Numbered from the stretch's first letter, positions 2,992 to 27,248 are shown. The stretch is DNA of 64,000 nt from Pseudomonadota bacterium (GCA_043821645.1 JBDRCO010000043.1:96001-160000), one strand, 5' to 3'. Program-made: numbers and translations. The notes: generated from the sequence alone by a model not told the origin.

Positions 2992-3522
2992 ATGCGCCTG
3001 TTGCTCACCCTGCTGCTGGTCGCCAGCACCGGTGCGTGCTCGCACGTGGTCCTGCTCAAGACCACGCCGCCGGGCGCCTCTGTCTACATCGATGGCGAGG
3101 TCAAGGGCGTGACGCCGCTGTTCTTCGAGGAGGGCACGGGCGCTGGCAAGAGCTACGAGCTGAGGCTCGAGCTCGAGGGCTACCAGCCCGAGCGCTTCGT
3201 GCTGCAGCAGGACCAGTGGTGGGCAAGCTGCGTGGCGCCGAGCCTGTGCCTCATCCCCTTCACCCTCGGTCTGTCGGCGAGCGGCCTGCTGTTCGCGCGC
3301 GCGCTGCGCGATGAGTACCACTACCTGTTGAGGCCGGTGGTCAAACCTGCTGTCCCGCCGCTGCCACCGCCCGAGCCTCCGAGGTCCGCGCCGGCGGCTC
3401 CTTTTGTGCCACCCGCAAAGGTGCCGGACACGGCGCCTGGCGTGCCCGCTGCTTCGGCCAGCGCGCCGGCCTCGCCCGGATCGGCACCGACCGAGACCGC
3501 GTCGCCGCCGACGTCACCCTGA
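2992..3522 (+). CDS. PEGA-domain lipoprotein with Pro-rich tail
   Basis: Lipoprotein signal MRLLLTLLLVASTGAC followed by PEGA motif TTPPGASVYIDGEVKGVTPL. Confidence 0.85.
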   Translation: MRLLLTLLLVASTGACSHVVLLKTTPPGASVYIDGEVKGVTPLFFEEGTGAGKSYELRLELEGYQPERFVLQQDQWWASCVAPSLCLIPFTLGLSASGLLFARALRDEYHYLLRPVVKPAVPPLPPPEPPRSAPAAPFVPPAKVPDTAPGVPAASASAPASPGSAPTETASPPTSP

Positions 3523-3553
3523 GTCCGCGCCTGGCGCGCGACGAGGAGTTCGC

Positions 3554-4018
3554 ATGCTCAAGCCCGATCAGCTCAAGCAGGTGGCCTTGTTCGCCGCGCT
3601 GGAGCCCGCGCACCTGGCCCAGGTGGTCTCCCTGGCCGTCGAGGAGGAGTACCCGGCAGGCGCGCGCATCTTCAACGAGGGCGATCCCGGGGACCGCCTG
3701 TTCGTGATCATCGAGGGCCGTGTGCGCATCTCCAAGCTCATCCCCAATGCCGGCGAGGAAGCCCTGACCATCCTCGAGGCTGGCTCCTACTTCGGTGAGA
3801 TGGCGCTCATCGACGAGAGCACGCGCTCGGCCCACGCCATCGCCCACAGCACCGTGCGGCTGGCCAGCATCGAGCGCACCGCCTTCGAGCAGCTGCTCTT
3901 CGTCAACCGCGACCTGGCCTACGACGTGCTGTGGAGCTTCGTGCGCACCCTGTCGTCACGGCTGCGCGAGACCAACGACAAGCTCAAGACCTTCTTCGTG
4001 CTCAGCGGTGGCTTCTAG
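3554..4018 (+). CDS. Stand-alone cyclic nucleotide-binding domain protein
   Basis: RBS GAGGAG before ATG 3554. Motifs IFNEGDPGD and YFGEMALIDESTRSAHA. No HTH. Confidence 0.9.
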   Translation: MLKPDQLKQVALFAALEPAHLAQVVSLAVEEEYPAGARIFNEGDPGDRLFVIIEGRVRISKLIPNAGEEALTILEAGSYFGEMALIDESTRSAHAIAHSTVRLASIERTAFEQLLFVNRDLAYDVLWSFVRTLSSRLRETNDKLKTFFVLSGGF

Positions 4019-4149: not shown

Positions 4150-4788
<639 letters not shown>

Positions 4789-4799
4789 CGCTCGCCTCG

Positions 4800-5024
4800 T
4801 CAGGCCGGGATGACCTCGCCAAGATCGGGCACCCGCTCCTTGAGCACGCGGGTCACACCGTACAGCAGGGTCATGGTGGCGCCGGGGCAGCCGGCACAGG
4901 CCCCCACCAGACGAACATGAACATCATTGCCCTCGAGCTTGACCAGCTCGACGTCGCCGCCGTCGGCCTGCAGGGCCGGGCGGATCTCATCCAGGGCGTC
5001 GCGAACACTTTGCTCGGTGACCAT
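4800..5024 (-). CDS. NifU/NfuA C-terminal-type Fe-S scaffold protein
   Basis: IRPALQADGGDVELV and GACAGCP (CxxC). GGAG RBS before ATG 5024. Confidence 0.93.
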   Translation of the reverse strand: MVTEQSVRDALDEIRPALQADGGDVELVKLEGNDVHVRLVGACAGCPGATMTLLYGVTRVLKERVPDLGEVIPA

Positions 5025-5070
5025 CTCGAACACTCCAGTCCGTGTGTCTCCTCGACGGGAGAACGGCAGG

Positions 5071-5105
5071 TACTATTGACATCACGACGTCACCTGTCAA
5101 CAGAA
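5071..5105. promoter_or_regulatory. Inverted repeat overlapping a sigma70-like promoter of the NifU-ribA operon (candidate operator)
   Basis: TACTATTGACA-N13-TGTCAACAGAA (arms 9/11 complementary). Minus strand reads TTGACA-N17-AATAGT. Confidence 0.5.
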
Positions 5106-5136
5106 GACGCCCCGCGTCATGCACCCTCTATGTAGC

Positions 5137-5170
5137 AAAAAAGCCTGCCCCGCGCAGGGCGAGGCAGGCT
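5137..5170 (-). terminator. Rho-independent terminator after the inner-rod-like gene
   Basis: Minus strand AGCCTGCCTCGC-CCTGC-GCGGGGCAGGCT (12-bp stem including one G-U pair) followed by a T run. Confidence 0.85.
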
Positions 5171-5195
5171 CGAGAGAGAAGGGATTCGGTGGACT

Positions 5196-5711
5196 TTAGA
5201 CCTGCGTTTGCATGGTCTGCTTGACACCGCTGGTGGCCTTCTCGACCACCTTCGAGGTCAACTCCAGTTCCTGCGAGTACTTGTACACGCTGGCCTGGAT
5301 CGCGAGCAGCTGCTGCGGGTCGAACTTCTTGCCGCTGGTGGCCAGCTTGATGATGGAATCGAGCTTGCCCTGGCCCTCGACCATGCCGCCAAGCAGGTTC
5401 TTGAAGCCCTTGCCCATGGTCTCCTTGCCCGGCTCCACCGCGTGGGTGGTGTCCGAGGCATTGAGCTTGGCCGCCTTGAGGGTCTCGACAGCCTTGTTGG
5501 GGCTCTCGACCTTGTTGACCTCCGAGACATGCTGCAGCTGACTGACCTGGCTGGCCTGGTTGACCTGGCCGGCCTGCTGCGTGGCCATCACGTCCTGGAA
5601 CTTGTTGACCTGCTGGGTCTGTTGATTCTGAACCTGCTGCTGGGCTTGCTTCTGGATCTCCTCGACGATCTTCTGCGAGGCCTGCCCCAGAGCGCCAACG
5701 GGATTTGCCAT
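5196..5711 (-). CDS. Type III secretion inner-rod-like protein (SctI; EscI/YscI/HrpB family)
   Basis: RBS GAGGA before ATG 5711. Gln-rich N-terminus and C-terminal DPQQLLAIQASVYKYSQELELTSKVVEKATSGVKQTMQTQV match the inner-rod/needle C-terminal signature. Confidence 0.8.
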   Translation of the reverse strand: MANPVGALGQASQKIVEEIQKQAQQQVQNQQTQQVNKFQDVMATQQAGQVNQASQVSQLQHVSEVNKVESPNKAVETLKAAKLNASDTTHAVEPGKETMGKGFKNLLGGMVEGQGKLDSIIKLATSGKKFDPQQLLAIQASVYKYSQELELTSKVVEKATSGVKQTMQTQV

Positions 5712-5815
5712 CACATCCTCCCTCGCGAGATGCGCGCGGCATCTCGGGGTGTGGGGACAGAAATCGGTCCCCGCTCCGCCGCGGTCCATGTACGGTCCCG
5801 CTGCGAACAAGGCCA

Positions 5816-5843
5816 TTATCGGCCGCGGAGGCTGGGGGGTTGC
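5816..5843 (-). promoter_or_regulatory. Putative sigma-28 promoter of the inner-rod-like gene
   Basis: Minus strand GCAA-N16-GCCGATAA. The -10 box matches the FliA consensus exactly. Confidence 0.65.
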
Positions 5844-5944
5844 GGCAGAACACCGCCGGTCGCTGGGCGATTCTCTCGTGATGATAAGATATTACAAAAA
5901 AGGCAGGCAGACCGGCAGGACGCGAGCACCCATGAAAAGTGGCC

Positions 5945-6733
5945 CTACTCTTCTTCCATGAGCAGATCGCGCAGGATACGCGACATCTTCTCGATGGCCT
6001 TGGCGTGCAGGCGAGAGGTCCAGCTCTTGGACAGGCCCATGCTGTCGCCGACCTCCTGCAGGCTCATCTCCTTGAAGTAGTACATGGTCAGCAGGTTGCG
6101 CTCCTGCTCGGGCAGGCGCGACAGGGCGTCGCGCACGTGGGCCTTGACCTGCACATCGCTGACCTTGATATCGACCGGCAGAGCTTCCAGGTCCTCGACC
6201 TGCAGTCCCTCCATGCCCTCGAGACTGGTCACGAAGATGGTGACCAGGTTTTGCACGGTGTCGGCCAGTTCCTCGACCTCCGCCTCGACCGCCTTGTTGT
6301 CCTCGCCGATGGTCTGGCGGTCGTTGACGTTGGCCAGGTAGGCGTTGGCGCGCTCCTCGAAGCGGAACTTGGCGTACTCGTTGCGCGATACCCAGCCCAT
6401 GTTGCGCAGGCCGTCGTAGATGGCGCCACGGATCCGGTAGTACGAGAAGGTCATGAAGTTGGCGCCGAACTTGGGATCAAAGCGGCCCGCCGCCTCGAGC
6501 AGACCGACCATGCCGTACTCGACCAGGTCGTCGAACTCGATCTCCTTGGCCAGGCTCTTCTTGATCTTGCCGGCGATGGAGCGCACGTAGGGCAGGTACT
6601 GGTCGATCAGCGCCTTTTGGTCCGCCAGGTTGGGGGCGACCGCGCTGCTGGTCCTGGGCTTGCTCGCGCCCAGCCCCTTCTTGGCAGGACTGGCCGTCGC
6701 CCGGTCGCGATCTGTCGACTTGCTGGGCGTCAC
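5945..6733 (-). CDS. RNA polymerase sigma factor, FliA/WhiG (sigma-28) family
   Basis: DDLVEYGMVGLLEAAGRFDP, YRIRGAIYDGLR and region 4 MSLQEVGDSMGLSKSWTSRLH. GTG 6733 chosen from an upstream GAGG. Confidence 0.92.
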   Translation of the reverse strand: MTPSKSTDRDRATASPAKKGLGASKPRTSSAVAPNLADQKALIDQYLPYVRSIAGKIKKSLAKEIEFDDLVEYGMVGLLEAAGRFDPKFGANFMTFSYYRIRGAIYDGLRNMGWVSRNEYAKFRFEERANAYLANVNDRQTIGEDNKAVEAEVEELADTVQNLVTIFVTSLEGMEGLQVEDLEALPVDIKVSDVQVKAHVRDALSRLPEQERNLLTMYYFKEMSLQEVGDSMGLSKSWTSRLHAKAIEKMSRILRDLLMEEE

Positions 6734-6847
6734 CCTGCGACCTCGCCTCGGTGCTGGTCCGTCGCCTCGGCGCTGCTCCTGGCACCGTGCCAGACGCAGA
6801 TGAAACGCCGCCGACTCCCCGCGAAGGCGCCGGGGCCACACGCACTC

Positions 6848-6876
6848 ATCTTAGAGAGGGGGTCTCCTAGCGTCAA
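6848..6876 (-). promoter_or_regulatory. Sigma70-type promoter of the sigma-28 gene
   Basis: Minus strand TTGACG-N17-TAAGAT. Confidence 0.65.
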
Positions 6877-6905
6877 CAAAGCGACCGGCGTGGATGGACA
6901 GGTGT

Positions 6906-7283
6906 TCAGGATTTGGCCGGGCGAGCCAGCTGGGATTGCAGGCGCTGCGCCAGGGCCTCATCGCGGTTGATCAGATCCGACACCGCTTCTTCGACGTGCT
7001 TGGCGTCCTTGCCCTTGAGGTTCTTGAAGCGATCCCGCACCACGGCGGACACGAAGCGCTTGGTGGAGTCCTGCTTGTCGCCGGCCTCGGCCAGCTCCTT
7101 GGCCACCCCCATCAACTCCTCGAGCAGGGCCGAGCGCACATTGCGCGCCATGGCCTCGGTGGACTCGGCAGTGCCCACGCGCTCGACCATGCGCGCAAAA
7201 CCGGGCCCCTTGCTGCCCTTGGTCTTCTGGGCGCCCTCGGATCGGGACCCTCGAACAGGCCCTGATGATCGACCGATGCGCAT
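6906..7283 (-). CDS. Hypothetical protein (125 aa) in the T3SS satellite cluster
   Basis: GC3-biased ORF with RBS AAGAGG. Basic, disordered N-terminus and helical C-terminus. Confidence 0.8.
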   Translation of the reverse strand: MRIGRSSGPVRGSRSEGAQKTKGSKGPGFARMVERVGTAESTEAMARNVRSALLEELMGVAKELAEAGDKQDSTKRFVSAVVRDRFKNLKGKDAKHVEEAVSDLINRDEALAQRLQSQLARPAKS

Positions 7284-7359
7284 GCTGGCCTCTTTCCGTT
7301 TCTGCTCAGCCTACAAATGGTGGCGCCCGCAAGCCGGAACCACCGCCCCATTGTTGCCA

Positions 7360-7387
7360 GTATCGGCGCCGGAGCGCTGATGATTCG
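7360..7387 (-). promoter_or_regulatory. Putative sigma-28 promoter of the 125-aa gene
   Basis: Minus strand CGAA-N16-GCCGATAC, the same geometry as the site at 5816-5843. Confidence 0.55.
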
Positions 7388-7405
7388 ACAAAGTGGAGGG
7401 ACTCT

Positions 7406-7825
7406 TTACAGCTTGCCAAAGCATCCGACGTCATGGGCCTCGATCAAGCTGCGCGCGAAGTCCCCGGCGAGGCCATCGGGCTCCATCTTGATGGCCTGGT
7501 TCAAGGCCTGCAGGCCCTCGTCGAACTTGCGGAGAAACAGCAGGGCCTCGCCGATGTGCGCCTGCGCTAGGGCCGAGCCCGGGGCGACCTTGAGGGCCTC
7601 GCGGTGGGCCTTGAGGGCCTGCTGGAACTTGCCCTGGGCAAAGTACATGTTGCCCATGCCCACGTGGGGCACCTCGCTGTGCGGGATCAGGGCAGCGACG
7701 CCACTGAAGACCTCCTGCGCCTCTTTCCACTTGCCCAGTTCCATGTAGAGGTAGCCCGCCTCGAGCAGCAAGGCGACCTCGCTCTGCGGCACGTCGACGA
7801 TGCCCTTGACGATGTGCTCGGCCAT
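7406..7825 (-). CDS. Small TPR protein, probable T3SS chaperone-like
   Basis: About three TPR motifs in 139 aa, co-oriented with the sigma-28 and inner-rod genes. Confidence 0.85.
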   Translation of the reverse strand: MAEHIVKGIVDVPQSEVALLLEAGYLYMELGKWKEAQEVFSGVAALIPHSEVPHVGMGNMYFAQGKFQQALKAHREALKVAPGSALAQAHIGEALLFLRKFDEGLQALNQAIKMEPDGLAGDFARSLIEAHDVGCFGKL

Positions 7826-8055: not shown

Positions 8056-8799
8056 TCACCACTGCAAGGCCGTGCGGGCCGCGAGCGACAGATCGGAGCA
8101 CGGCGTGGTGCACGGTGGACCGTCGACGTGATGCCAGTGCACGGCGCCGGGGGCCGCGCCCAGGCGCAGCAGGGTCGACGAGCGGGTGCCGTAGTTCCAG
8201 CGCGGCGCGTGCACGCACACACCCTCGAAGCCGGGGTCGTCGTGGTGGCTGAGGATGCGCAGCAGGGCCTCGTCGTCCGGCGGCGTGGCGGGGGGCAGGG
8301 CCTGCACCGCGCGCTGCACGAAACCCGGACGCTCGCTGCTGCCGGCGCCGAGGCTGCGCTCGGTGACGACGTGCCAGCCTGGCGCCAGCACCTCGCCCTG
8401 CATGCGCACCCCATCGTGGAACAGCCTGTGCGCACCCTCGCGGTCGGCCAGGATGAGGTGAAAGGGATTGTACGCCGCGGGGTCGAGGGCCGCGGCGTGG
8501 GCCGCTGCGGTGCCGGCGTCGTCGAAATCGAGAAGGTCGCGCACCAGCAGGCCGCGCGATCGCCGCGCGGGATCGGGCGGCGCGCCGAAGCGGTTGGTCA
8601 CACCCACGAACAGCCCGCGCTGGTTGAGGCCCAGCCAGGTGCCACCGGCCACCGCATCCTCTGGGGCAAAGAAGCGCCACCGCTCGCCCTGCCAGGCGCG
8701 GGGAGGCAGGGAGGCGCGGTCGAGTTGCTCGTCGCGGTTGGCCGCCACCAGCAGCGGCCACTGCGGCCACAGGCCCACGGCCACGGTCAAGGTACACAC
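8056..8799 (-). CDS. NRDE (TANGO2/DUF833) family protein
   Basis: N-terminal MCT, AANRDE, GGTWLGLN and YGTRSST motifs. Confidence 0.93.
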   Translation of the reverse strand: MCTLTVAVGLWPQWPLLVAANRDEQLDRASLPPRAWQGERWRFFAPEDAVAGGTWLGLNQRGLFVGVTNRFGAPPDPARRSRGLLVRDLLDFDDAGTAAAHAAALDPAAYNPFHLILADREGAHRLFHDGVRMQGEVLAPGWHVVTERSLGAGSSERPGFVQRAVQALPPATPPDDEALLRILSHHDDPGFEGVCVHAPRWNYGTRSSTLLRLGAAPGAVHWHHVDGPPCTTPCSDLSLAARTALQW

Positions 8800-8960
8800 C
8801 TGCCACCTCCTGCCACAGCATGTAGGGGTGTCGGGTCAGCTCGCAAGTGCGCTCGCATCCCCGCGAAAAGGGTAGCTAATTTGCTCTGTTGCAGGTGCCC
8901 GGCTATGCTTCAGGAGGCTTTCCTGATCGCAAGCGCGAGTCGAACCTGGGGGCCTGCATC

Positions 8961-10358
8961 GTGTTCGTTGGTCTGCGCGTGCGCACCGCGGCCCTGGTCA
9001 TCGCCCTGGTGGCGGTGGGGGGCACCGCCTACGCCCTGTTCTCACTGGAGCGCGAGCGCACGGTCCTGGAACAGAGTCTGCGCTCGAATCTCATGGCCAC
9101 GCTGAACGCATTTGCCATCCCCTGCGCCATGGCCATCGCCAACGATCGCGTCGACACCCTGGACAATCTGGTGGCGGCCGTGGCCGAGCGTGCGGACGAG
9201 CTGGGCCTGCTCGAGATCACCGTGGTCGACCACACGGGCCGCGTGCTCGCCGATAGTCGCGTCGAGCGCTTCGGCGAGAACCTGACCGATGCCTTCACGC
9301 TGCAGGCGCTGCACAGCGATGTGCCCGTGTGGCAGGTCGACGGTAGCCGGGCCCTGGCCAGCCACCCCGTGATCAGTGGCCTGCGCTGGGGCACCTTGCG
9401 CGCGGCGCTGACCCTGGATGCCATGCACGCGCGCCTGGCCCAGCGGCAGCGCGATCTCGGGCTGCTCTTCGTCGCCGGCGCCCTGACCATCGCCCTGGTG
9501 CTGATGTTGACCCTGGGCGTGCTGGTGGTGAACCCGGTGTCGGCGCTGGCCGCGACGGCGCAGCGTCTGGGGCAGGGCGACCGCAGCGCGCGCATCGGCC
9601 GCTACCGCCGCGACGAGCTGGGCGAGCTGGGGCGCGCCTTCGACGAGATGGCCGCGCGCATCGCCAGCCACACCGACGACCTCGAGCGCACCGTGGCCGA
9701 GCGAACGGCCCAGCTCGGCGCGACCAACAGCCAGCTCAGCGAGACCAACGCCCGCCTCGAGGCCGCCAACCGCCAGCTCGAGCGCCTGGCCGTCACCGAC
9801 GGGTTGACCACCCTGTACAACCACCGGCACTTCCAGGAACTGCTGGGCCTCGAGCTCAAGCGCGGCACGCGCGCCCCGCACCACTTCGCGGTCATCATGA
9901 TCGATGTGGATCACTTCAAGCACTACAACGACACCCATGGCCACCCTGCGGGAGACGAGGTGCTGCGCCAGCTCGGGCGTCTGCTCGGCCAGAACCTGCG
10001 CGAGACCGACGTGGTGGCGAGGTACGGTGGTGAGGAGTTCGTGGTCATGTTGGTGGACAGCGACCGCGCCGCAGGTCTGGCCACCGCCGAGAAGATCCGC
10101 GCCCTGGTGGCCCAGCATCCCTTTGCTTTTCGCGAACAACAGCCCGGCGGCGCGGTGACCATCAGCGTGGGGGTCGCCTTTTACCCCGACGACGGTCTGA
10201 CCCCGGGTGACCTGATCTTCGCGGCGGACCAGGTGCTGTACGCGTCCAAGCGCGCGGGCCGCAACCAGGTGACCGCCACCGACGCCAGCCGGACACGCAA
10301 CCTGCCCCAGAACGACGGCGCCGCGAGCGCGCAGGATCCCGACGGGGAGGGCGCATGA
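8961..10358 (+). CDS. Membrane sensor diguanylate cyclase (TM, periplasmic sensor, TM, HAMP, coiled coil, GGDEF)
   Basis: HAMP motif RRDELGELGRAFDEM. Intact I-site and active site RETDVVARYGGEEF. Start approximate (GTG 8961). Confidence 0.93.
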   Translation: MFVGLRVRTAALVIALVAVGGTAYALFSLERERTVLEQSLRSNLMATLNAFAIPCAMAIANDRVDTLDNLVAAVAERADELGLLEITVVDHTGRVLADSRVERFGENLTDAFTLQALHSDVPVWQVDGSRALASHPVISGLRWGTLRAALTLDAMHARLAQRQRDLGLLFVAGALTIALVLMLTLGVLVVNPVSALAATAQRLGQGDRSARIGRYRRDELGELGRAFDEMAARIASHTDDLERTVAERTAQLGATNSQLSETNARLEAANRQLERLAVTDGLTTLYNHRHFQELLGLELKRGTRAPHHFAVIMIDVDHFKHYNDTHGHPAGDEVLRQLGRLLGQNLRETDVVARYGGEEFVVMLVDSDRAAGLATAEKIRALVAQHPFAFREQQPGGAVTISVGVAFYPDDGLTPGDLIFAADQVLYASKRAGRNQVTATDASRTRNLPQNDGAASAQDPDGEGA

Positions 10359-11311
10359 GGTCGTGGACCCTTGTCCCCGCTCTGGCCGCGCTGCTCGCGG
10401 GGTGCCGTCCCGAGCCCGAGGTGCCGGGTCCGCCATCCCCGCCGTCGTCGCCAGCGAGACCGGTGAAGGCCAGCGAGTGGCCGAACCAGATCCAGTTCGG
10501 CATCACCCCGGTGCTCGATCTCGAGAGCCTGCGACGAGGCAACCAGGCGCTGTGCGACGAGCTGGGCCACCTGCTGGGGACCGAGGTCAAGCTCGTGGTG
10601 TCGTCGAACTATGGCGAGCTGGGCGAATTGCTGATCCAGGGCCAGGTGACCTTCGCACGCATGTCCCCCCTGGCCTACGTGGTGGCGCGCACCCAGTACC
10701 CGTCGCTGCGGCTGGTGGCGTCGATGATCGCAGACGGTAGCATCGACTACGCAGCCTACATCGTGGCCCGCGCCGACAGCGACATCCTGCGCGTCGACGA
10801 CCTGCGTGGCCGCTCCTTCGGCTTCGTGGATGTCACCTCGGGGTCCGGCTACCTGTACCCACTGGTCTACATCTGGGATCGCTTCGGCAAGCCCGAGCGC
10901 TTCTTCTCGGGCGTGCGCTTTTTAGGCAATCACCAGGCCCTGCTGCGCGCCGTCGAGGAGGGCCACGTCGACGCCGGCGCCACCTTTTCGGCCGCCCTGG
11001 TGACCTATGGCCAGATGGGCCTGGGCTCGCCCTTTCGCATCGTGGCCAAGACCGGCCGCATCCCCTACGACGCCTTCGTGGCGGGTCCGGCCCTCGACGA
11101 CGCGCAGGTGGCCGCGCTGCAGAGTGCGCTGCTGGGCATCGACACGCGCTCGCCGCGCGGGCGCAAGGTGCTGGGCCCCCTGCGCCACATCAACGGCTTC
11201 TTGCCAGCCAATGACGCGCTGTACGACACGGTGCGCACCGTGGTGACCCGCGCCACCATGCATGGCACCCACGTGGGCCCGGATCAGGTGAGCAACGATG
11301 CAGGTCCGTGA
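10355..11311 (+). CDS. PhnD-like phosphate/phosphonate substrate-binding lipoprotein
   Basis: Lipobox LLAGC. Motifs FVDVTSGSGYLYP, GNHQALLRAV and IPYDAF. ATGA overlap with the cyclase. Confidence 0.9.
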   Translation: MRSWTLVPALAALLAGCRPEPEVPGPPSPPSSPARPVKASEWPNQIQFGITPVLDLESLRRGNQALCDELGHLLGTEVKLVVSSNYGELGELLIQGQVTFARMSPLAYVVARTQYPSLRLVASMIADGSIDYAAYIVARADSDILRVDDLRGRSFGFVDVTSGSGYLYPLVYIWDRFGKPERFFSGVRFLGNHQALLRAVEEGHVDAGATFSAALVTYGQMGLGSPFRIVAKTGRIPYDAFVAGPALDDAQVAALQSALLGIDTRSPRGRKVLGPLRHINGFLPANDALYDTVRTVVTRATMHGTHVGPDQVSNDAGP

Positions 11312-13037
11312 CGTCGATACCCTGGCCCGGGTGCTGCCCGATCTTGGCGCCGCTCCCGTGCTGGCCGTGGATCTCGAGACCACGGGCCTCGATCCGCTGG
11401 TCGAGCGCACCCTGCTCATCGGCCTCAGCGACGGCCGCCGCACCTGGTTGATCGAGGCCCGGGAGGTGCCCGCCGACGCCCTGCGCACCCTCCTGGGGCC
11501 CGTGCTGCAGCGGACCCCGCTGGTGGTGATGCACAACGCGCGCTTCGATCTGCGCTTCTTGCTGCGTCTGGGTATCCGGGTCGACAACCCGGTGGATACC
11601 CTGCTCAACCAGCAGCTGCTCGAGAACGGCCGCGAGCGCGGACGGCTGTCCCTGGCCGAGGTGTGCCGGCGCATGCTCGGCGTCACCGTCGACAAGAGCG
11701 AGCGCATCAGCTTCACCACCATGGGGGACCAGGCCTTCACCGAGGCGCAGCTCGAGTACCTGCGACGCGACCTGCTGGCGACCTACCAGCTGTTCCGGCG
11801 CCAGGTGGTGGCGCTGGCCCACGACGGGCTGGCCGGGGTCGCGGCCATCGAGGCCAATGCCATCAATGCCTTCGCGAGCATGGAGCAGGCCGGTCTTCCC
11901 GTCGACGTCGCTGCCTGGCGCACCCTCACCGACCAGGCGGAGCGCGCCCGGGGAGAGGCGCGCAAGGTGCTGGACAGTCTGTTTCGCGAGGTCGCGGACC
12001 TGGACCTGTTTCGGGGCGTCAACATCAACTACGACTCGGAGCAGGAGCTCAAGGAGCACCTGCGGCGCCTCGGCATCGAGCTGGAGAGCACGGCGCGGCC
12101 CAGCCTGCTCGGGCTCGAGCATCCGGTGGGGCGCGCCATCATCGACTACCGCGAGGCCGCCAAGATCGTCAGCACCTACGGCGAGGGCTTCCTGTCCCAC
12201 GTGCACCCGGTGAGCGGGCGCATCCACGCGCGCTTCCGGCAGATCGGCGCCTCCACCGGACGGGTCTCGTGCTCGGATCCCAACCTGCAGAACATCCCCA
12301 AGGAGTCGGCGTTTCGGGCCAGCATTCGCGCACCCGAGGGGCGCACCCTGGTCACCGCGGACTACGCCGCCTGCGAGCTGCGCATCCTGGCCCAGGCCTC
12401 GGGCGACCAGGCCTTCGTGCACGCCTTCGCCCGGGGCGACGACCTGCACGCCATGGTGGCGTCGCAGATGTTCGGCAAACCGGTGTCCAAGACCGAGAAC
12501 CCGGAGCTGCGCAACCGCGCCAAGGCCATCAACTTTGGCCTGGTCTACGGCATGGGGGCAGGCGGCCTGGCGCAGGCCGTGGGCTGCGGTCTCGACGAGG
12601 CCGAGCGCCTGCTCACGCGCTACTTCGACACCTACCCGGCGGTGAAGCGCTACCTCGAGCAGCGGGTGCAGATCGCGCTGCGCGAGGGGCACGCGACCAC
12701 CCTGAGCGGACGCCGCCTGTGGTTCAGCGACGAGGACCTGCGCGCCCCCGACGCGGCCGGGCGCATCGGCCGGGTGGCCAAGAACATGCCCATCCAGGGC
12801 ACCAGCGCCGACATCACCAAGCTGGCGATGGCCCACCTGTTCCGACGGCTGCAGGACGAACAACCCGAGGCGCAGATCGTCAACTGCGTGCACGACGAGA
12901 TCGTGGTCGAGACCAGCGACGGCGAGCACGCAGCGCGGCTGGTCACCGAGGCCATGGAGCAGGCCGAGCGCGACCTGCTGCCCGACGTGGTGCCCGCGGT
13001 CGAGGTGGTGGTGGATCGCAGCTGGGCCAAGGGCTGA
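11298..13037 (+). CDS. Family A DNA polymerase with 3'-5' exonuclease and no 5'-3' nuclease (Klenow-like)
   Basis: ExoI DLETTG, ExoII HNARFD, ExoIII YLRRD. TGRVSCSDPNLQNIP. Motif A DYAACELR, motif B RNRAKAINFGLVYG, motif C VHDE. Confidence 0.95.
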   Translation: MQVRDVDTLARVLPDLGAAPVLAVDLETTGLDPLVERTLLIGLSDGRRTWLIEAREVPADALRTLLGPVLQRTPLVVMHNARFDLRFLLRLGIRVDNPVDTLLNQQLLENGRERGRLSLAEVCRRMLGVTVDKSERISFTTMGDQAFTEAQLEYLRRDLLATYQLFRRQVVALAHDGLAGVAAIEANAINAFASMEQAGLPVDVAAWRTLTDQAERARGEARKVLDSLFREVADLDLFRGVNINYDSEQELKEHLRRLGIELESTARPSLLGLEHPVGRAIIDYREAAKIVSTYGEGFLSHVHPVSGRIHARFRQIGASTGRVSCSDPNLQNIPKESAFRASIRAPEGRTLVTADYAACELRILAQASGDQAFVHAFARGDDLHAMVASQMFGKPVSKTENPELRNRAKAINFGLVYGMGAGGLAQAVGCGLDEAERLLTRYFDTYPAVKRYLEQRVQIALREGHATTLSGRRLWFSDEDLRAPDAAGRIGRVAKNMPIQGTSADITKLAMAHLFRRLQDEQPEAQIVNCVHDEIVVETSDGEHAARLVTEAMEQAERDLLPDVVPAVEVVVDRSWAKG

Positions 13038-13121
13038 CGCCCTGTCCCGGGTCCGGCCGAGCCCGGATCCTGCCCCACATTTCAATGGAACCCGGCTCGT
13101 GGCCGTGGACACTATGGATGG

Positions 13122-14759
13122 ATGAGCGCAGACGGCGAGCCGCAGTTCGATCCCGAACTGCGTGAGCACTACGAGCAGGACCTCGAGATCAGCGAGGAGC
13201 GCTGGCGTTTCGAGCGCCGGGTACAGCGCCTGCTGATCGCCTTCGGCGTGGCCCTGCTGAGCATCATCTTCCTGGCGATCTGGGCCTCGACCCTGCGTTC
13301 GCGCATCGCCGTCGAGGTGTACGGGGATGGCCTGGCTGGGGATGGCTGGCCTAGCTCGCTGCGACTTGTGGCACGCGACCCCAAGAGCGGCGCGATCCTC
13401 AGACCCCTCGGGGTGGAGGTGAGCCTGCAGGTGACCGGCGACGACCCGCAGCAGATCGAGAACCTCGGTCTCACCGCGGAGACCGCGTCCGCCCTGTTTG
13501 TCGTCGACGCCGAGAGGCTGGCCCGGGGTGCCTCGGTGGCGCTGAGCCTGCGCACCGCCGAGGAACCCGATGCTCTCGAACTGGCCCTGCGCTCCCCGGC
13601 GGCCGCGACGGCCTGCGGCGTTCATCTCGTCGACAGCGTGCAGGCCCTGCAGAAGCCCGAGGCGGTGGAGGGTGCGGTGGACGCGCTGCCAGCCCTACCC
13701 GTGGTGGAGTTTGCAGGACGCACGATCACCCTGCGCTTCTATCCCGAGTCCGGGACCCTGGTGCCCGTGCTCATGAACCGGGTGACCGTGCTGGCCCTGG
13801 CCGACGGTGTGCCAGCATCCGGCGTCGCGGTGCGGGTGGATCCCCTGGGCTGGAACCTGCGGACCGACGCCCAGGGCCTCGGCGACTTGCAGTGGACGCC
13901 CGGGCGCGAACTCGGCGCGCTAACACTCACGCCTCTGTCGGGTGACGACGAGCAGCTCGCCACTCCCACCCCGGTCAAGGTCGCCCTGGCCGCTCCCCCC
14001 TCGCAGCTGCTGGCCAAGCCGCGCCGCGCCCACGTGGCCCCTGGCGGCGACATCGTGGTCGACATCCAGTCGGTGCGCCTGCGCACCTTTCTCAGCTACG
14101 AGGTCTGGTATGGCGCGCGCCTGGTGGCGCAAAGTGATCTGGCAGTGGACAGCGGCCATGCGGTGCTCGAGCTGCCGGCGCCCGACAGGCCGCGCGTGCT
14201 GGTAGGGACAAGGGTGCAGCGCGCCCCGCTGGGGGAGGATGTGGTCAGCGATCAGGCTTTTGTGTACGTCGACGACGGGGATGCCCGCAGCGCCCTGGCG
14301 CATCTGCTCGAGGACCTGGCGCCGCAGCTGGGGCGCGATCCGGGCTTGCAGGCCCTGGCGACGATGCCCGTCAACGACGACGACGACGCCGAACGCCGGA
14401 TGCGTCTGCTGTTCTCACGCCTCGAACTCGACGCCCGACCGCAGCTCGTGGCGTCGAGCGGTCCGCGCAACCAGGCCCGCGCCGAGCTCCGCCGCCTGCG
14501 CTGGCAGCGCTGGCTGTTCGCTGGCTACTGGACCCTGGGCTTGGGCGCCCTGGCCCTGGCCTCCTTCGCGGTGGTGCTGCACAACCGCCGGCTGTTCACG
14601 CGCCTCAAGCAAGCCGGCGACGACGATCCGGCCGAGGCCGAAGCCACGGCGCGCTCCATCCGCCATCGCGGCACGCTCGAACTCATTGCCGTGGTCATCG
14701 GCATGGTGTTCGGCCTGTTCATCGTCTACCGCCTGCTCTCCAACCTGTGGTGGGGATAG
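13122..14759 (+). CDS. Hypothetical membrane protein with macroglobulin(MG2)-like Ig segments
   Basis: One N-terminal and two C-terminal TM helices. FYPESGTLVPVLMNRV and RTDAQGLG resemble MG-domain motifs. Confidence 0.75.
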   Translation: MSADGEPQFDPELREHYEQDLEISEERWRFERRVQRLLIAFGVALLSIIFLAIWASTLRSRIAVEVYGDGLAGDGWPSSLRLVARDPKSGAILRPLGVEVSLQVTGDDPQQIENLGLTAETASALFVVDAERLARGASVALSLRTAEEPDALELALRSPAAATACGVHLVDSVQALQKPEAVEGAVDALPALPVVEFAGRTITLRFYPESGTLVPVLMNRVTVLALADGVPASGVAVRVDPLGWNLRTDAQGLGDLQWTPGRELGALTLTPLSGDDEQLATPTPVKVALAAPPSQLLAKPRRAHVAPGGDIVVDIQSVRLRTFLSYEVWYGARLVAQSDLAVDSGHAVLELPAPDRPRVLVGTRVQRAPLGEDVVSDQAFVYVDDGDARSALAHLLEDLAPQLGRDPGLQALATMPVNDDDDAERRMRLLFSRLELDARPQLVASSGPRNQARAELRRLRWQRWLFAGYWTLGLGALALASFAVVLHNRRLFTRLKQAGDDDPAEAEATARSIRHRGTLELIAVVIGMVFGLFIVYRLLSNLWWG

Positions 14760-14852
14760 GCGCACGCTGCCTTTGCTGGGTCGCCCCACCGAGCGAAGTT
14801 CCCGCGGCGCTGAACACCTGGATGCTTGCGCCGCCCGGGCTGATTCGCGAAG

Positions 14853-16220
14853 ATGCGCCCACTGCGTGAGGAGGCTTCTGTGCCCTTCGAGCCCGAGCTC
14901 ACTGCTCCCATCGCCACGGCGCGGCTGCAGAGCGCGCTGTCGCTGCGTCGCGTCCGCATCACCCTGCTCGAGGGCCCAGGGCAAGGTGGGCCGCGGGTCT
15001 TCGATCAGCAGACCATCGGCCTGGGCACCCATCCCTCGAACGAGCTGCGCCTCACCGACGAGACCGTGAGCCGCTTTCATGCACGCATCCACCAGGACGC
15101 GCGCGGCTTGAGCGTGCGCGATCTTGGCAGCCTCAACGGCAGCTACCTCGGCGCGCATCGCGTCGAAGTGGGCTATCTCAACGACGACGACGAGCTGCGG
15201 CTGGGGCAGACCCGGCTGCGGGTCGAGCGCCTGGCCGAGGGCTTCGAGGTCGCGCTCAGTCCGAACCCCCGCTTTGGCGATCTCATGGGCCAGAGCGCGG
15301 CCATGCGTCAGCTCTTCGCGGTGCTCGAACGCATCGCGCCCACCGAGGCCTCGGTGGTGCTCGAGGGCGAGAGCGGTACGGGCAAGGACCTCGCCGCGCG
15401 CGGCGTGCACGCCCAGAGCCGTCGCTGCCGCAAACCCTTCGTGGTTTTCGACTGCGGTGCTGCCGCGCCCGGGCTCATCGAGAGCGAGCTGTTCGGACAC
15501 GCCCGCGGTGCCTTCACCGGGGCCGCCAGCGAGCGCCCTGGCGTGTTCGAGGCGAGTCACGGTGGCACCGTGTTCATCGACGAGATCGGCGAGCTGCCCC
15601 TGGATCTACAGCCCAAGCTGCTGCGGGTGCTGGAGCAGCGCGAGGTGCGTCGCCTGGGCGAGAACCAGGTGCGTCCGGTCGACGTGCGGGTCATCGCCGC
15701 CACCAACCGCGACCTCGAGAAGGAGGTCGAGGCCAAGCGCTTTCGCGAGGACCTGTTCTACCGCCTGGCCGTGGTGCGCGTGCACATGCCGCCGCTGCGC
15801 GAGCGGCCCGACGACATCCCCGTGCTCATCGATCACTTCCTCAAGGACCTGGCCACCGATGGCCAGATTCCCGTGCTCAGTCCCGAGGTGCGCGCGGCCC
15901 TGGGTCGGCGGCCGTGGCTGGGCAATGTGCGCGAGCTGCGCAATGCCGTGGCTCGCGCCGTGTACCTGCCCGAGGACGCGCTGCGCTCGCAATCGCTGGC
16001 GCAGACCTCGGTCGACGAGGTCGACACCGAAGTGCCTTACAAGGTGGCAAAGGACAGGCTGCTCGACGCCTTCGAGCGCCGTTACCTGGGCGCGCTCCTC
16101 GCCTCGACCGACGGCAACGTGAGTGCGGCGGCCAAGAAGAGCGGCATCAACCGCACCCACCTGCAGGCCATGCTCAAGAAGCTCGGGATGCGCGGCAACG
16201 ACGACGTCACGCAGCCCTGA
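14853..16220 (+). CDS. FHA-domain sigma54-dependent transcriptional activator
   Basis: FHA ([14 protein letters not shown]), [23 protein letters not shown] and a Fis-type HTH. Confidence 0.95.
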
Positions 16221-16379
16221 ACCCACCGCTCGGATGTGCTGAATTTTTTTTCCAGCGCCCTGCGGCGGCGTTGCAATCGTGATGCAGGAGGGCCGGCCCG
16301 CCCTGCCCCGAACGAGGCGACCTTTGCGAGGTCCCTCCCGGGCAGCGCCTCATCCCGGTGGGATCGAGAGCGACAAGCC

Positions 16380-18320
16380 CTACAAGCTGCGGTCCACCGT
16401 GGTCACGCCCTCGGCCTGGATCTCGACGACGATCTGGCTGTCGATGCCCTTGTCGGGGTTGACCACGCGCAGCTTGATGGGACCGACCGGCAGCTCGACC
16501 TTGAACAGCGGTGTCTCACCCAGTTCGATGCTGCCGTGGTAGACGCGGGTCCAGGGACGCGTGCGCAAGGTGAGCAGTCCGGTCGCCTTGCGGGGTGGCG
16601 AGTCCCCGGACGTGTCGTCGGGAAGTGGGTGGTGAGGTTGCACGGGCCGGTGCCCTGGTCCGGGGCGCGGCCGGGCCTCGCGCGCGGTCAGCTGCAATTC
16701 CAGTTTCTGCGCGTCGCCAGGGCGCAGCAACACGCGCCGCTCCTCGGGCCGGTAGCCGTCGAGCTCCAGCCGCACGGTGCGCTCGACACCGGCCGGCAGG
16801 TCCGCGAGGGTGGCCGGGGTGACCTGGCCCGTGTCCATCCGGTCGAGCAGGATGTGCGCACCCGGGGGCGAGGTCTCGATCTGCAGGCTGGCGACCGTGG
16901 TTACGGGCAAGGTCTCCAGCGCCACGTGCTGCTGCAAGGTGGGGCGGTCCGACGTGACCAGGAGGTTGGCGTGATGGGGTTTGTAGCCTGACGCGGCCAC
17001 CGCCAGGATATAGGCGCGCTCGAACTCGAGCCCATCCACCGTCAGCGGGGTCGTGCCGCGCGACACACCATCCAGGCTCACCTGGGCTCCCACCGGCGCC
17101 GAGGTCAGCACGAGCTGACCGATCTGGGGTGCGGGTTTCCACTGCAAGGCCAGCAGACCGAGACCGGCGAGGAGCGCGGCCAGTGCCAGGGTACCTGCCA
17201 GGACCAGCCGCGACCGACCCCGCCGGTAGCGGGTCTGGGTCATGGTCGGCTGCGGGCTCGACGACGGCGTGCCCATGTCGCGGATGCCCGTCGAGGGAAG
17301 AGCGCGGATCACCTCGGACAGGGATCCCGCCTCGCGCAGGCGATTCTTGCGCTCGATATGGTCCGGGAAGTGCTCCTCGAGCAAGGCGCCCAGCTCCAGC
17401 GAGGTGGCAGGCACACCGAAGTCCGCGATGAAGCTCTCGAGTGCCTGGCGCATCTCCAGGCAGGACTGAAAACGCTCGGCAGCTGGCCGACGCAGCGCAC
17501 GACCCACGATCTCGGTCAGCACCTCGGGCGTGCCGGGCCTGGCCTCGGCCACCGGCGGCGCGTCCTCCTCGGTGATCACGCGCAGGGTCAACAGTTCGCT
17601 GTCGCGCTTGTACAGGCGCCGCAGGGTCAACAGCTCGTGCAGCAAGATACCGACCGCGAACACGTCGCTACGGCGATCCAGGGTCTCACCCAGGCATTGC
17701 TCCGGCGACATGTAGGCGGCCTTGCCCATGATGGTGCCGGTGCGGGTGTGCGCCACCTTGTTGGCTGCCTTGGCGATACCGAAGTCGACGATCTTGATCT
17801 GGCCCTCGTAGGTGACCAGCACGTTCTGCGGGCTCACATCGCGGTGCACGATGTTGAGCGGCTGTCCCTGCTCGTCGCGCTGCTCGTGGGCGTAGTGCAG
17901 CCCGGCGCAGACGTCGGCGGCGATGCGTGCGCACAGCTCGACCGGGAGGATCTGACCGGTCTTGCGCGAACGGGATAGCAGCTGCGCCAGGTCCTCGCCC
18001 TGGATGTACTCCATGGCGATGAAGTAGGCGCTGCCAACGCGTCCCAGGTCGTAGATCTGCACGATGTTGGGGTGGTTGAGTCGCGCGGCGATGCGCGCCT
18101 CGTCGAGGAACATCTCGACAAAATGCTCCTGCTCGCTCAGGTGCGGCAAGATCTTCTTGACCACGCAGAACTTCTTGAAGTCCGCTGCGCCGCTCATGGT
18201 GGCCAGGTACAGCTGAGCCATGCCGCCGGTGGCGATCTTGCGCAGCAGGTTGTAGCGGCCAAAGGGAACGCCCGGCTCGGATGCCGCTCCACTCTCGCCG
18301 TCGCGCTCGCTGTCGCTCAC
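16380..18320 (-). CDS. Membrane Ser/Thr protein kinase with C-terminal PEGA domains
   Basis: [21 protein letters not shown] and YMSPEQ motifs, a TM helix and PEGA repeats. Start GTG 18320 approximate. Confidence 0.93.
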
Positions 18321-18398
18321 GGACTGACCCCTGCCTGCGTCGTCGACGCACGTTCCCCCACTCTGGCAACCACAGACACCTGGGGTCAAGAAGGCTGC

Positions 18399-19358
18399 TC
18401 AGGGGAGCTGGAGGACGGCGCTGACGGCATGCGCGCCCAGACACATCGAAAAGGCGTCTGCGATGCGTGGGTCATCCAGACAGGTCGGGCTCTCGATGAT
18501 GGTGCCATCGCCATCGATGCATCGCACCACCTGGGCCTGGCCATCGAGGTCGTAGCGCTCGAGACCGTCGCCATCCATGTCCAGGTCGGGGTGCTCACCG
18601 ATCAGACGCATGTACTGGGCCAGGCTGATCTCGTCGGGCGTGTTGGGGTTGATGCAGAGGATGGGCATGTAGCGGCAGATGGGGATGCTCACCCGCTGCG
18701 TGTCGCGAATGCGCGCGGATCCCGCGATACGGATCTCCATCAGCTCGCGCAGGGTGTCGGGGATGAATACAGCAAAACGCGTGCGCTCCATGGGAAGGTC
18801 GTCTTCATCCAGCTTGAGCATGATCGTCTGGTCCATGACGGTGGCCAGGCGGCATTGTTGAACCGGCGCAGGTTCGGTGCGGTACAGCGCCTGATCGCCG
18901 TCGAGATCATTGGGATCGAGAACGGCGTGGCCGCATTCGGGCGCGCCGCAGAAGTTGTTGGCCGGATCCTGGTCCGCGTCCTCGCAGGTGAAGTACTTGA
19001 TGGTGACCGAGCGATCGTCACAGCCATAAGGATCGTCGACGCCCACCAGTTCCAGGGCGACACAGATGCGTCCGGTCTGCACCGACGAGCGAAAGGCGTC
19101 GTTGATGGCAGTGGCCATCGGAGCCAGGGCCCGATTGACCGCCGCGTCGGGCAGGCTGTCACCGTCCAGATCCAGGGACTGCTGCACGGGTGTGAGCGCC
19201 ATATCATCGACCAGGAAGCCCAGGCCCGTGGGCACCGGATCGTCGTAGCCGTCCCACTCCGCCGGCTCGGGCGGAGGCCTGGACGCCGGGGGGGCGCAGG
19301 CGGCGCCCAGGAGCACTGCCAGCACCAGACCCAGGCATCGCTGTCGATTCCGTCGCAT
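18399..19358 (-). CDS. Hypothetical Cys/Asp-rich lipoprotein
   Basis: Lipoprotein signal MRRNRQRCLGLVLAVLLGAAC and DxDGD motifs. Confidence 0.8.
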   Translation of the reverse strand: MRRNRQRCLGLVLAVLLGAACAPPASRPPPEPAEWDGYDDPVPTGLGFLVDDMALTPVQQSLDLDGDSLPDAAVNRALAPMATAINDAFRSSVQTGRICVALELVGVDDPYGCDDRSVTIKYFTCEDADQDPANNFCGAPECGHAVLDPNDLDGDQALYRTEPAPVQQCRLATVMDQTIMLKLDEDDLPMERTRFAVFIPDTLRELMEIRIAGSARIRDTQRVSIPICRYMPILCINPNTPDEISLAQYMRLIGEHPDLDMDGDGLERYDLDGQAQVVRCIDGDGTIIESPTCLDDPRIADAFSMCLGAHAVSAVLQLP

Positions 19359-26454: not shown

Positions 26455-26561
26455 GGCTCTGCAATTCCTCGTCGAGACGATCGCCTGCGTCAGCATACCC
26501 GTCGCGCCGGCGGCATCAAAGGGTCCGCGTGGGTCGAGCGCAGCCGGGGGCCCGGCGGTGC

Positions 26562-27248
26562 TCAGGGTGCCTTGTTGCAGCTGCCGGGGATGGGCATGAC
26601 CTGCACGTCGGGCGGCGCACTGTAGGTGAAGTGATCCCGGGCCAGCTTGTTGTCGAACAGCGCCTTCGAGAACACGAAGCGGTTCAGGTTGCCCTGGCTA
26701 TCGACCACGGTGCTGGCCTCGACGCGCGAGGTCTTCGGGTTCACATCCAGCAGCAACCGCTGGTACGCCGCCTGGGCCTTTTTGGGTACCAGCACCAGCC
26801 GCTGCAGGCCCTCGGGCGCCTTCTGGCCCGGCTGCACGTCGAACTGCGCGCTCAGATCACCCTGACCGAACAGGAAGGTCAGCGACGAGGTCATGGCATC
26901 GGCCTTGAAACAACGATCCACCAGTGCCTGGTGATCCGCAGGCTGGATCACCCACAACGCGCTGCCGTCGACCAGGAAGGTCTTGTTTGTCGGCGTCGCG
27001 TAGTCGAAGCGCATCAGGCCGGGCCGCTGGTAGCTGACATGCCCGGTGGAGCGCTCGGTGCGCTTGAAGATGCGGCTTTGGTAGGTCTGCTCGAACTCCG
27101 CCTCGAAGCTCTGAGTGTTGTCGTAACTGCGTTGCACGGCGCGCACCAGGGCAGCGGTGGCGTCCTCGGCAGGGGCCGCCGCGGGGACAGGGGCAGCAGC
27201 CACCGGTGTCCAGGCAAGAACGTGCAGGAATGGCAGGACGAAAAGCAT
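26562..27248 (-). CDS. lolA: Outer-membrane lipoprotein carrier LolA family
   Basis: Signal peptide, SFEAEFEQ, RPGLMRFDY and F.YSAPPDV motifs. Confidence 0.85.
   Translation of the reverse strand: MLFVLPFLHVLAWTPVAAAPVPAAAPAEDATAALVRAVQRSYDNTQSFEAEFEQTYQSRIFKRTERSTGHVSYQRPGLMRFDYATPTNKTFLVDGSALWVIQPADHQALVDRCFKADAMTSSLTFLFGQGDLSAQFDVQPGQKAPEGLQRLVLVPKKAQAAYQRLLLDVNPKTSRVEASTVVDSQGNLNRFVFSKALFDNKLARDHFTYSAPPDVQVMPIPGSCNKAP

Follow-up and report, generated by a model that had tools for sequence, protein, structure and literature searches.

Introduction

The non-flagellar type III secretion system (T3SS) of myxobacteria, the 'Myxo' T3SS of Abby and Rocha (2012), comprises an export apparatus, an ATPase, SctJ, and an inner rod, and neither a secretin nor SctF, according to the part of that paper drawn on here (PMC3459982). 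Excerpts of three papers place the myxobacterial T3SS on the deepest injectisome branch, report that one system, T3SS*, is needed for prey lysis, and describe the assembly and control of this 'needle-less' T3SS as still unexplained (PMC3459982, PMC10433427, PMC12075869). In Myxococcus xanthus, the T3SS loci are T3SS* (MXAN_2434-2464) and T3SS(2) (MXAN_5643-5654); MXAN_5652, annotated as a YscI/HrpB family member in the supplement of one paper (PMC11509652), falls by its tag within the cluster that a passage of another calls T3SS(2) (PMC10196010). Here, we analyze a unit of four genes in a 64,000-nucleotide (nt) stretch of a genome deposited as Pseudomonadota bacterium (GCA_043821645.1, JBDRCO010000043.1:96001-160000), to which we refer as the window. 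The unit encodes a tetratricopeptide repeat (TPR) protein, a protein of 125 amino acids (aa) called p125, a sigma-28-family sigma factor, and an SctI-like protein of 171 aa. An earlier note on the window, made from the sequence alone, had taken it for a T3SS module split off in this lineage, in which a flagellar-type sigma factor controls injectisome parts, possibly for predation.

Several described systems offer themselves for comparison. IpgC/MxiE, SicA/InvF, and ExsCED-ExsA are secretion-coupled T3SS regulators with AraC-type activators and either TPR chaperones or partner switching, and Chlamydia has a sigma-28-type factor. In the published text consulted on sigma-28, the promoter has the −10 element GCCGATAA (−15 to −8) and the −35 element TCTAAAG (−36 to −30), sigma-28/FlgM complexes have been solved, and FlgM touches all three sigma domains (PMC12784957). 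In the Chlamydiales, T3SS genes are scattered over several loci, as stated in a passage of PMC3459982.

Results

The four genes of the window are the last four of a five-gene order that recurs in related genomes. When a single genome for each species was scanned, 116 relatives of the SctI-like protein were obtained; 80 loci, all from Myxococcota or from genomes labelled delta-proteobacteria, were kept; together with the window, they make up the 81 sources to which the fractions below refer. Using hidden Markov models (HMMs) built from our own alignments of five families, we located the order up188-TPR-p125-sigma-sctI, complete in 60/81 sources, in which the cassette is headed by up188, a gene for approximately 170 to 220 aa (e.g., L001:7416-7922 and L035:7799-8362, the L numbers denoting related loci). 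With sctJ and other core proteins of five loci as queries, a source was classed as attached if sctJ lay within 1.5 kilobases (kb) downstream and as detached if the locus, with 1.5 kb or more of downstream sequence, contained no core gene. Fifty sources are attached and 27, including the window, are detached, and four are too short to tell; the complete order occurs in 42 attached, 15 detached, and 3 unclassified sources. In the attached loci, sctJ, sctL, sctN, and sctR/S come after sctI. The locus of Myxococcus sp. Y35 (L035) is an example: sctI is followed by a YscJ_FliF gene (6.4e-21), a 740-aa gene, and FliH/SctL, and further downstream by a T3SS ATPase (PF18269, 2.1e-26), FliO, FliP, and FliQ. 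The cassette heads the T3SS locus in Myxococcus, Corallococcus, Archangium, and some uncultured Myxococcota. Judging from this synteny, up188-TPR-p125-sigma-sctI is an old, conserved cassette of Myxococcota that normally opens the locus of the 'Myxo' non-flagellar T3SS.

Detached cassettes take several forms. Among the detached sources, the window alone combines the last four cassette genes with a missing up188, and the up188 HMM has no match anywhere in its 64 kb. Two detached loci have sigma and sctI only, and in ten detached loci sctI stands alone among unrelated genes, e.g., those for hydrolases and kinases. In L007 and L028, up188-TPR-p125 and sigma-sctI lie 2 to 7 kb apart with inserted genes between them. 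In a neighbor-joining tree of the SctI-like proteins, which carries no support values, the detached proteins fall into three groups and the attached ones into two, and the window groups with L001 and L025; its four proteins share 78, 59, 74, and 67% identity with their counterparts in the nearest locus. The comparison with Myxococcota T3SS loci that the earlier note had proposed thus finds the same cassette directly before sctJ in attached loci, and the separation from the apparatus that it had seen is real: no apparatus gene was found in the window, versus sctI followed by sctJ-sctL-sctN in 50/81 sources. Its statement that the lineage had split off a module holds for the detachment, but not for an assembly of the module in this lineage. 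We regard the window's unit as a fragment of an old, widely conserved cassette, truncated by the absence of up188, and not as a new assembly.

The genes of the cassette share a bipartite promoter motif, CAAC-N16/17-CGATA. Both strands of the 80 loci contain 109 matches, compared with a mean of 9.5 in 20 shuffles, and 105 of them immediately precede up188 (55), sctI (35), or TPR (15) in the gene's own orientation. The 64 kb of the window hold a single match (5817-5842; 0.15 expected), located before sctI, where the promoter reads GCCGATAA at 5823-5816. A weight matrix built from 93 distinct sites, in which the C and the G of CGATA are fixed by the search pattern, scores this site at 25.1 bits, with 10.6 bits for the next site in the window and a training range of 15.3 to 29.0. 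The motif precedes sctI in 36/81 sources, all of them outside the Myxococcus-Archangium group; there, it usually extends to CGATAAT, and its spacer sequences have diverged. By class, this sctI-proximal copy is present in 26/27 detached, 6/50 attached, and 4/4 unclassified sources. Two detached loci carry up188 in the orientation opposite to that of TPR-p125-sigma-sctI (L029:7277-7933 and L066:6564-7316, both on the minus strand), and each inverted gene has its own motif copy on its strand.

The published sigma-28 elements correspond to TAAA-N17-CGATA, so that the geometry equals that of our motif and the −10 half is identical. Three points lead us to infer that the motif is read by the cassette sigma factor: its gene shares the cassette with the genes that bear the motif, the motif is restricted to this cassette, and the −10 halves agree. 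The control of injectisome parts by the sigma factor, as the earlier note had pictured it, would fit such a conserved sctI promoter with the sigma-28 −10 consensus. A second GCCGATAC in the window (7360-7367, upstream of p125) was considered as a sigma-28 −10 element and rejected as a chance occurrence; no CAAC stands at the appropriate spacing, and the site does not rank within the window's top 15 by weight-matrix score.

The best family for the window's sigma factor is FliA/WhiG. Among 91 sigma models, TIGR02479 (FliA_WhiG) gave the best match (5.3e-45, 153.9 bits; the curated cut-off of 189.6 is not reached), and the next group, SigB/F/G, reached 87.7 bits. A profile of 33 rows searched against the PDB was led by FliA chains (6pmi, 1.2e-38), followed by sigma-28 (1rp3, 9.8e-35) and WhiG (7lq4, 5e-25); the next group, SigF-type sigma factors (1.3e-18), lies about 20 orders of magnitude behind FliA. 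Public names of the orthologs are FliA/WhiG or FliA, and the JGI name is 'sigma factor for flagellar operon FliA'. By family assignment, the window's sigma factor is FliA/sigma-28-like, as had been noted before. In attached loci of Myxococcus and Corallococcus, the sigma open reading frame (ORF) overlaps the predicted sctI start by about 100 nt (L035:9244-10077 versus 9974-10516), and the sigma factor of the attached Myxococcaceae loci has a predicted C-terminal extension that is absent from the window's protein.

The p125 gene lies between TPR and sigma in 66/81 sources. The N-terminal part of the protein is Gly-rich, of low complexity, and poorly conserved, and about 70 residues at the C terminus are helical. 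It belongs to no Pfam or NCBIfam family, and the window protein has no FlgM match at E ≤ 1. Of the 57 families matched by 33 members (E ≤ 10), the 25 listed likewise do not include FlgM, and the p125 profile obtained only six chance-level PDB matches at E ≤ 10, none of them a FlgM chain. The 126 database relatives carry no informative functional name, being mostly hypothetical or unnamed proteins; two JGI names among them look spurious and were set aside. A search of the Atlas returned unnamed clusters and structure rows with template modeling (TM) scores below 0.5. We co-folded sigma residues 38-262 with p125 residues 28-125 by ESMFold2, using our own 33-row alignments and three controls. The interaction prediction score from aligned errors (ipSAE) was 0.65, 0.68, and 0.65, against 0.04 for the best of the three controls, with a contact agreement of at least 72% and a partner predicted local distance difference test (pLDDT) score of at least 61. 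The mark applied to such co-folds is reached by 116/157 solved complexes and 2/215 mismatched pairs, counts that calibrate our runs only roughly because we used our own alignments. The confident contacts join p125 residues 53-119 with sigma residues 122-168 (domain 3), 193-199, and 254-259, and they include sigma V160 and L163, invariant in 33 orthologs, and p125 A61, which is nearly invariant. This model suggests that p125 binds the sigma factor and may have an anti-sigma-like role. The 'unknown protein' of the earlier note thus still belongs to no known family, but is now predicted to bind the sigma factor (co-fold ipSAE 0.65). On a side note, a paper on Bradymonabacteria uses a gene called flgM as a strain-specific quantitative PCR marker, and its supplement lists YscI/HrpB homologs in these Myxococcota, which are credited with a needle-less T3SS (PMC11509652).

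The SctI-like protein matches inner-rod families at low scores: NF038054 (SctI) at E = 3.3e-4 and 20.7 bits, with the curated cut-off of 39 not reached, and PF17001 (T3SS_basalb_I) at E = 0.036 and 15 bits, with the cut-off of 32.4 not reached. Its relatives number 458 at E ≤ 1e-3 among 491 database candidates. Of 40 homologs, 36 match PF17001 (E ≤ 10; best 1.6e-4; none reported above the cut-off), and five match the Pfam model of FliE weakly (best 0.021). A precomputed label for PF09392, which the Atlas names T3SS_needle_F, is attached to 108 of the 120 homologs listed and to 76 to 80% of the members of Atlas clusters; a local hmmscan of the homologs gave no PF09392 match at E ≤ 10, and the window protein matched TIGR02105 at E = 0.16. 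The protein has a Q-rich, variable N-terminal part and a near-invariant C-terminal part of about 70 residues; 37 of the 39 invariant columns in a 40-row alignment fall within residues 102-171, and its 171 aa compare with family models of 76 and 94 positions. AlphaFold, given that alignment, predicted helices only with a mean pLDDT of 48.8. A profile search of the PDB returned only chance-level matches, the best being a tape measure protein (E = 0.024). In the window, the next gene 3′ of the SctI-like gene is NifU-like and not sctJ, and the assignment is carried by orthology, because the orthologs directly precede sctJ in 50/81 sources. On these grounds, the 171-aa protein is, by its relatives, a member of the SctI/SctF superfamily, in agreement with its first description as inner-rod-like.

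The TPR protein has three TPR motifs and a capping helix (Pfam TPR_1, 2.3e-15), and its orthologs, found in 65/81 sources, always adjoin p125. Its best NCBIfam matches are the T3SS chaperone families CdsG (NF052304; 1e-9, 38.7 bits, cut-off 170), LcrH/SycD (TIGR02552; 1.8e-9, 37.4 bits, cut-off 104.8), and SctY (NF052415; 3.6e-4, 21 bits, cut-off 70), all of them short of the cut-off. The AlphaFold model (pLDDT 95.4) retrieved IpgC at rank 14 and PcrH at rank 45 in a Foldseek search (TM 0.67 to 0.71); designed TPRs, RPAP3, HOP, and OGT match as well or better, and the 60 PDB matches listed for the profile are to generic or designed TPRs only. The TPR protein is best treated as a candidate T3SS chaperone-like partner.

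The up188 proteins have a G/S/T-rich middle part, a nearly invariant D, and a stretch of 19 C-terminal residues with invariant S, N, K, K, N, and R; we presume that this C terminus resembles that of T3SS needle subunits. The SctF needle model is weakly matched by 4/29 members (best 0.0082) and the HrpA pilin model by 3/29. The up188 profile had only chance-level matches in the PDB, and hhalign of the SctI-like against the up188 family returned a probability of 0.24, which does not establish a relation.

The layout of the window is listed in Table 1. The four genes follow one another on the minus strand in the order TPR, p125, sigma, and SctI-like, and then a hairpin, spanning 5141-7825. As the reading frames, the hairpin, and the unrelated flanks are all present, and no T3SS or flagellar family turned up in the scans of the window, the observation from which this work started is confirmed. 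Its family guesses hold as well, yet all scores lie below the curated cut-offs.

Table 1. Features of the cassette region in the window (positions counted from the first letter of the 64-kb stretch)
Feature	Position	Strand	Description
GTP cyclohydrolase II flank gene	4150-4788		
NifU-like flank gene	4800-5033		Next gene beyond the SctI-like gene
Terminator-like hairpin closing the unit	5141-5171	−	13-pair stem, 9 G-C, 5-nt loop, then TTTTTTGC (T-run)
SctI-like gene	5196-5711	−	171 aa; GGAGG 7 nt 5′ of ATG
Sigma-28-type promoter candidate of sctI	5815-5842	−	CAAC 5842-5839, 17-nt spacer, CGATAAT 5821-5815
Sigma gene	5945-6841 (open frame)	−	Likely start GTG 6733, giving 5945-6733, 262 aa
Sigma-70-like promoter candidate before the sigma gene	6848-6876	−	TTGACG-17-TAAGAT, 9/12 consensus positions
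p125 gene	6906-7283	−	125-aa ORF
TPR protein gene	7406-7825	−	139-aa ORF
TANGO2-like flank gene	8056-8799		
GGDEF/HAMP flank gene	8889-10358		

A longer reading of the SctI-like gene, 206 aa from an ATG at 5816, was rejected, as that ATG lies inside the −10 element of the promoter and the 40-sequence alignment has a conserved N terminus at 5711. A consensus scan of 3.6 kb found two sigma-70-like sites versus 0.3 expected, on consensus match alone. The flank genes are unrelated to secretion, and none of them recurs beside the cassette in the 80 related loci. Families of the export apparatus, ATPase, secretin, and flagellum were not matched by any of 36 ORFs of the window (E ≤ 1e-5) or by 8 others; 8 of the 36 ORFs scanned across the 64 kb belong to no family. 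The sole match with a T3SS name, PF16697, reflects an FHA domain within a sigma-54 activator (14844-16217), and Rfam has nothing at gathering score across the 64 kb. A tblastn search with ten proteins of a Myxococcus T3SS locus gave a single weak match (E = 0.005), so that neither approach produced a convincing apparatus or flagellar gene. This weak match pairs window positions 41921-42274 with an 820-aa protein of the T3SS locus. The region 41728-43757 holds no ORF that passes the filter for G+C at third positions; an ORF on the plus strand (42123-43757), whose C-terminal two thirds resemble a polytopic membrane protein, overlaps the tblastn match on the opposite strand. In L035, a conserved 820-aa gene on the opposite strand (16007-18466, minus strand) matches no family, and the likewise conserved 740-aa gene between sctJ and sctL (11523-13742) has only a weak FliG_C match (2.1e-4).

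Two further observations concern the surroundings of the cassette. The G+C content per 500 nt is 0.60 to 0.66 in the cassette region (5001-7500) and about 0.69 to 0.74 in the flanks; the lower value could stem from the Q/K/N-rich proteins or from a different history. Second-messenger genes lie around the cassette, namely, those for the adjoining HAMP-GGDEF cyclase (8889-10358), for cyclic nucleotide (cNMP)-binding proteins, and for a PilZ protein (3404-4018, 24235-26697, and 59502-60029). WhiG-type sigma factors are controlled through cyclic di-GMP; the GGDEF neighbor is not conserved beside the cassette in the 80 loci.

Discussion

We consider it probable that the window contains a detached, 5′-truncated copy of the five-gene T3SS cassette, in which the sigma factor drives the motif, p125 is anti-sigma-like, and the TPR protein is chaperone-like. 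The sigma factor would direct RNA polymerase to CAAC-N16/17-CGATAAT. In relatives, where the motif heads the cassette, this would amount to positive autoregulation, and where sctI is transcribed separately from the cassette or the apparatus genes, the same promoter would stand directly before sctI, as at 5815-5842. By binding the sigma factor, mainly at sigma domain 3 and parts of domain 4, p125 would act as an anti-sigma-like regulator and inhibit it, and the TPR protein would be a chaperone-like partner of p125, of the secreted rod- and needle-like proteins, or of both. The T3SS core would then lie elsewhere in the genome.

Several observations weigh against parts of this reading. The SctI, FliA/WhiG, and T3SS chaperone assignments all lie under the curated cut-offs, and the 64 kb covered here, out of a contig listed as 177,522 bases, show no T3SS core. 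The contact between p125 and the sigma factor is the output of a model and not a measurement, and because complexes of FlgM have been solved, the co-fold may have passed through likeness to them. In the split cassettes L007 and L028, p125 stays with up188 and TPR and not with sigma, so that a chaperone-side role fits at least as well as an anti-sigma one, and L002 and L003 retain sigma and sctI with no p125 nearby. As for the motif, CAAC takes the position of the sigma-28 TAAA and the −35 half thus differs, GATAAT also resembles the −10 hexamer of sigma-70, and a factor other than the cassette sigma may read it. Finally, TPR, p125, and sigma have no motif copy in the window, and the autoregulatory loop of the relatives is therefore not evident there.

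A more far-reaching version, which we hold to be rather unlikely, is that the earliest-branching non-flagellar T3SS kept a sigma-28/anti-sigma checkpoint, with p125 as the FlgM analogue, and that this circuit became detached in many uncultured Myxococcota. The sigma factor would be released once p125 is exported through the apparatus or captured by a freed TPR chaperone, and would then activate its own cassette as well as the rod-like SctI and needle-like up188; once detached, the circuit would keep scattered T3SS genes together as a sigma-28-type regulon.

Other explanations share parts of the same evidence. The TPR protein and p125 could instead form a chaperone/co-chaperone pair that keeps the SctI-like protein and up188 monomeric, p125 having no regulatory tie to the sigma factor. 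YscG/YscE and YscY/YscX are such pairs for early substrates, and the gene order of the cassette may be analogous to the ysc/psc E-F-G-H-I-J series. The best NCBIfam matches of the TPR protein and the presence of IpgC and PcrH among its fold matches would suit this pair, as would the cohesion of up188, TPR, and p125 in split cassettes; however, the chaperone scores are far under the cut-offs and indistinguishable from generic TPR similarity, and in the co-fold p125 docks onto the sigma factor while the controls score close to zero. We hold the pair to be quite unlikely. About equally doubtful is that housekeeping sigma-70 reads the motif, or another regulator binds it, and that the cassette sigma has other targets. 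GATAAT fits five of six positions of the sigma-70 −10 hexamer at a spacing of 16 to 17 nt from GCAACC, the −35 half departs from the sigma-28 TAAA, and the window's sigma gene has a sigma-70-like promoter candidate of its own. The confinement of 105/109 matches to a cassette that encodes a sigma-28-family factor speaks against it, as do the C and G of CGATA, which are a hallmark of the sigma-28 −10 element, and not of that of sigma-70, in the text consulted (PMC12784957), though they were fixed by our search pattern.

The detached cassette might also be an orphan relic of a lineage that has lost its T3SS, with genes that are decaying leftovers or have been reused. The window has no core gene in 64 kb and lacks up188, sctI is entirely alone in ten related loci, and the passage of PMC3459982 on the distribution of the Myxo T3SS places it only in Cystobacterineae. 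To this we give a slim chance, as the four ORFs are intact at the identities to the nearest locus given above, 37 columns are invariant in the C-terminal 70 residues of 40 SctI-like homologs mostly of the detached type, the promoter is kept in 26/27 detached sources despite the diverged spacer, and working systems with scattered T3SS genes exist, e.g., in the Chlamydiales (PMC3459982, in part). That the unit is the remnant of a flagellar regulon, consisting of FliA, an anti-sigma factor, and a FliE-like rod protein, is very improbable. The FliA likeness and the JGI name of the sigma orthologs, together with the weak FliE matches of 5/40 SctI-like homologs (best 0.021), stand against the 36/40 homologs that match the SctI family and against the neighbors in attached loci, which are a short YscJ-type lipoprotein gene, sctL, and sctN. 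Moreover, L035, the one attached locus annotated with Pfam over about 10 kb on each side, yielded no family of the rod, the hook, FliG/M/N, or Mot, and the Myxo loci are described, in the portion of PMC3459982 used here, as non-flagellar and without FlgBCDEK, FliE/G, and MotAB.

The conserved sigma-28-type factor, the sharp promoter motif, and the predicted sigma-binding partner provide direct experimental handles in species that can be cultivated and are harmless, e.g., those of Myxococcus and Corallococcus. New here is the bipartite motif CAAC-N16/17-CGATA(A)(T) at the cassette genes. In the literature searched, as far as the text of these sources was covered, SctI and LcrH-like chaperones are mentioned, and we found no description of the sigma-28-type factor, the motif, p125, or up188, the primary papers on T3SS* and on M. 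xanthus SigF, a possible ortholog of the sigma factor, being outside the scope of the search. The likeness of up188 to needle subunits, if true, would matter for a system called 'needle-less'. The detached forms would mean that T3SS early-substrate genes can stay in a regulon by a dedicated promoter and not by linkage, and such promoter-held regulons are relevant to programs that detect secretion systems by gene clustering. The cassette also bears on the origin of the injectisome from the flagellum, in which a flagellar-style late-gene sigma factor would have been carried over.

Among known systems, the Myxo T3SS is the closest. The attached loci share with it an SctI-family gene directly before sctJ, followed by sctL, sctN, and sctR/S, and the lack of a secretin or classical needle gene; of the two Myxococcus loci, the 'short' one may be the ortholog, as it fits the gene content, with no SctD seen within 10 kb. 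The window's cassette differs in standing apart from every apparatus gene. The scattered T3SS genes and the sigma-28-type factor of the non-flagellated Chlamydiales offer another parallel, and the best NCBIfam match of the TPR protein is the chlamydial needle chaperone CdsG, although at 38.7 bits versus a cut-off of 170. In bringing together a TPR chaperone-like gene, small partners, a transcription factor, and early substrates, the cassette is presumably also comparable to systems of the IpgC/MxiE type, which rely on AraC-type activators and not on a sigma factor. From the FliA/FlgM checkpoint, the window's locus differs in having no flagellar genes, in the −35 half (CAAC versus TAAA), and in p125, which has no detectable sequence similarity to FlgM and whose predicted contacts cover domain 3 and part of domain 4, compared with all three domains for FlgM in the text consulted (PMC12784957). 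It shares with that checkpoint a sigma-28-family factor, the −10 element GCCGATAA with an equal spacing to the −35 position, and a small, partly disordered, predicted sigma binder encoded in the cassette of the sigma factor beside type III secreted substrates. Collectively, the cassette points to a flagellum-style control circuit in non-flagellated bacteria.

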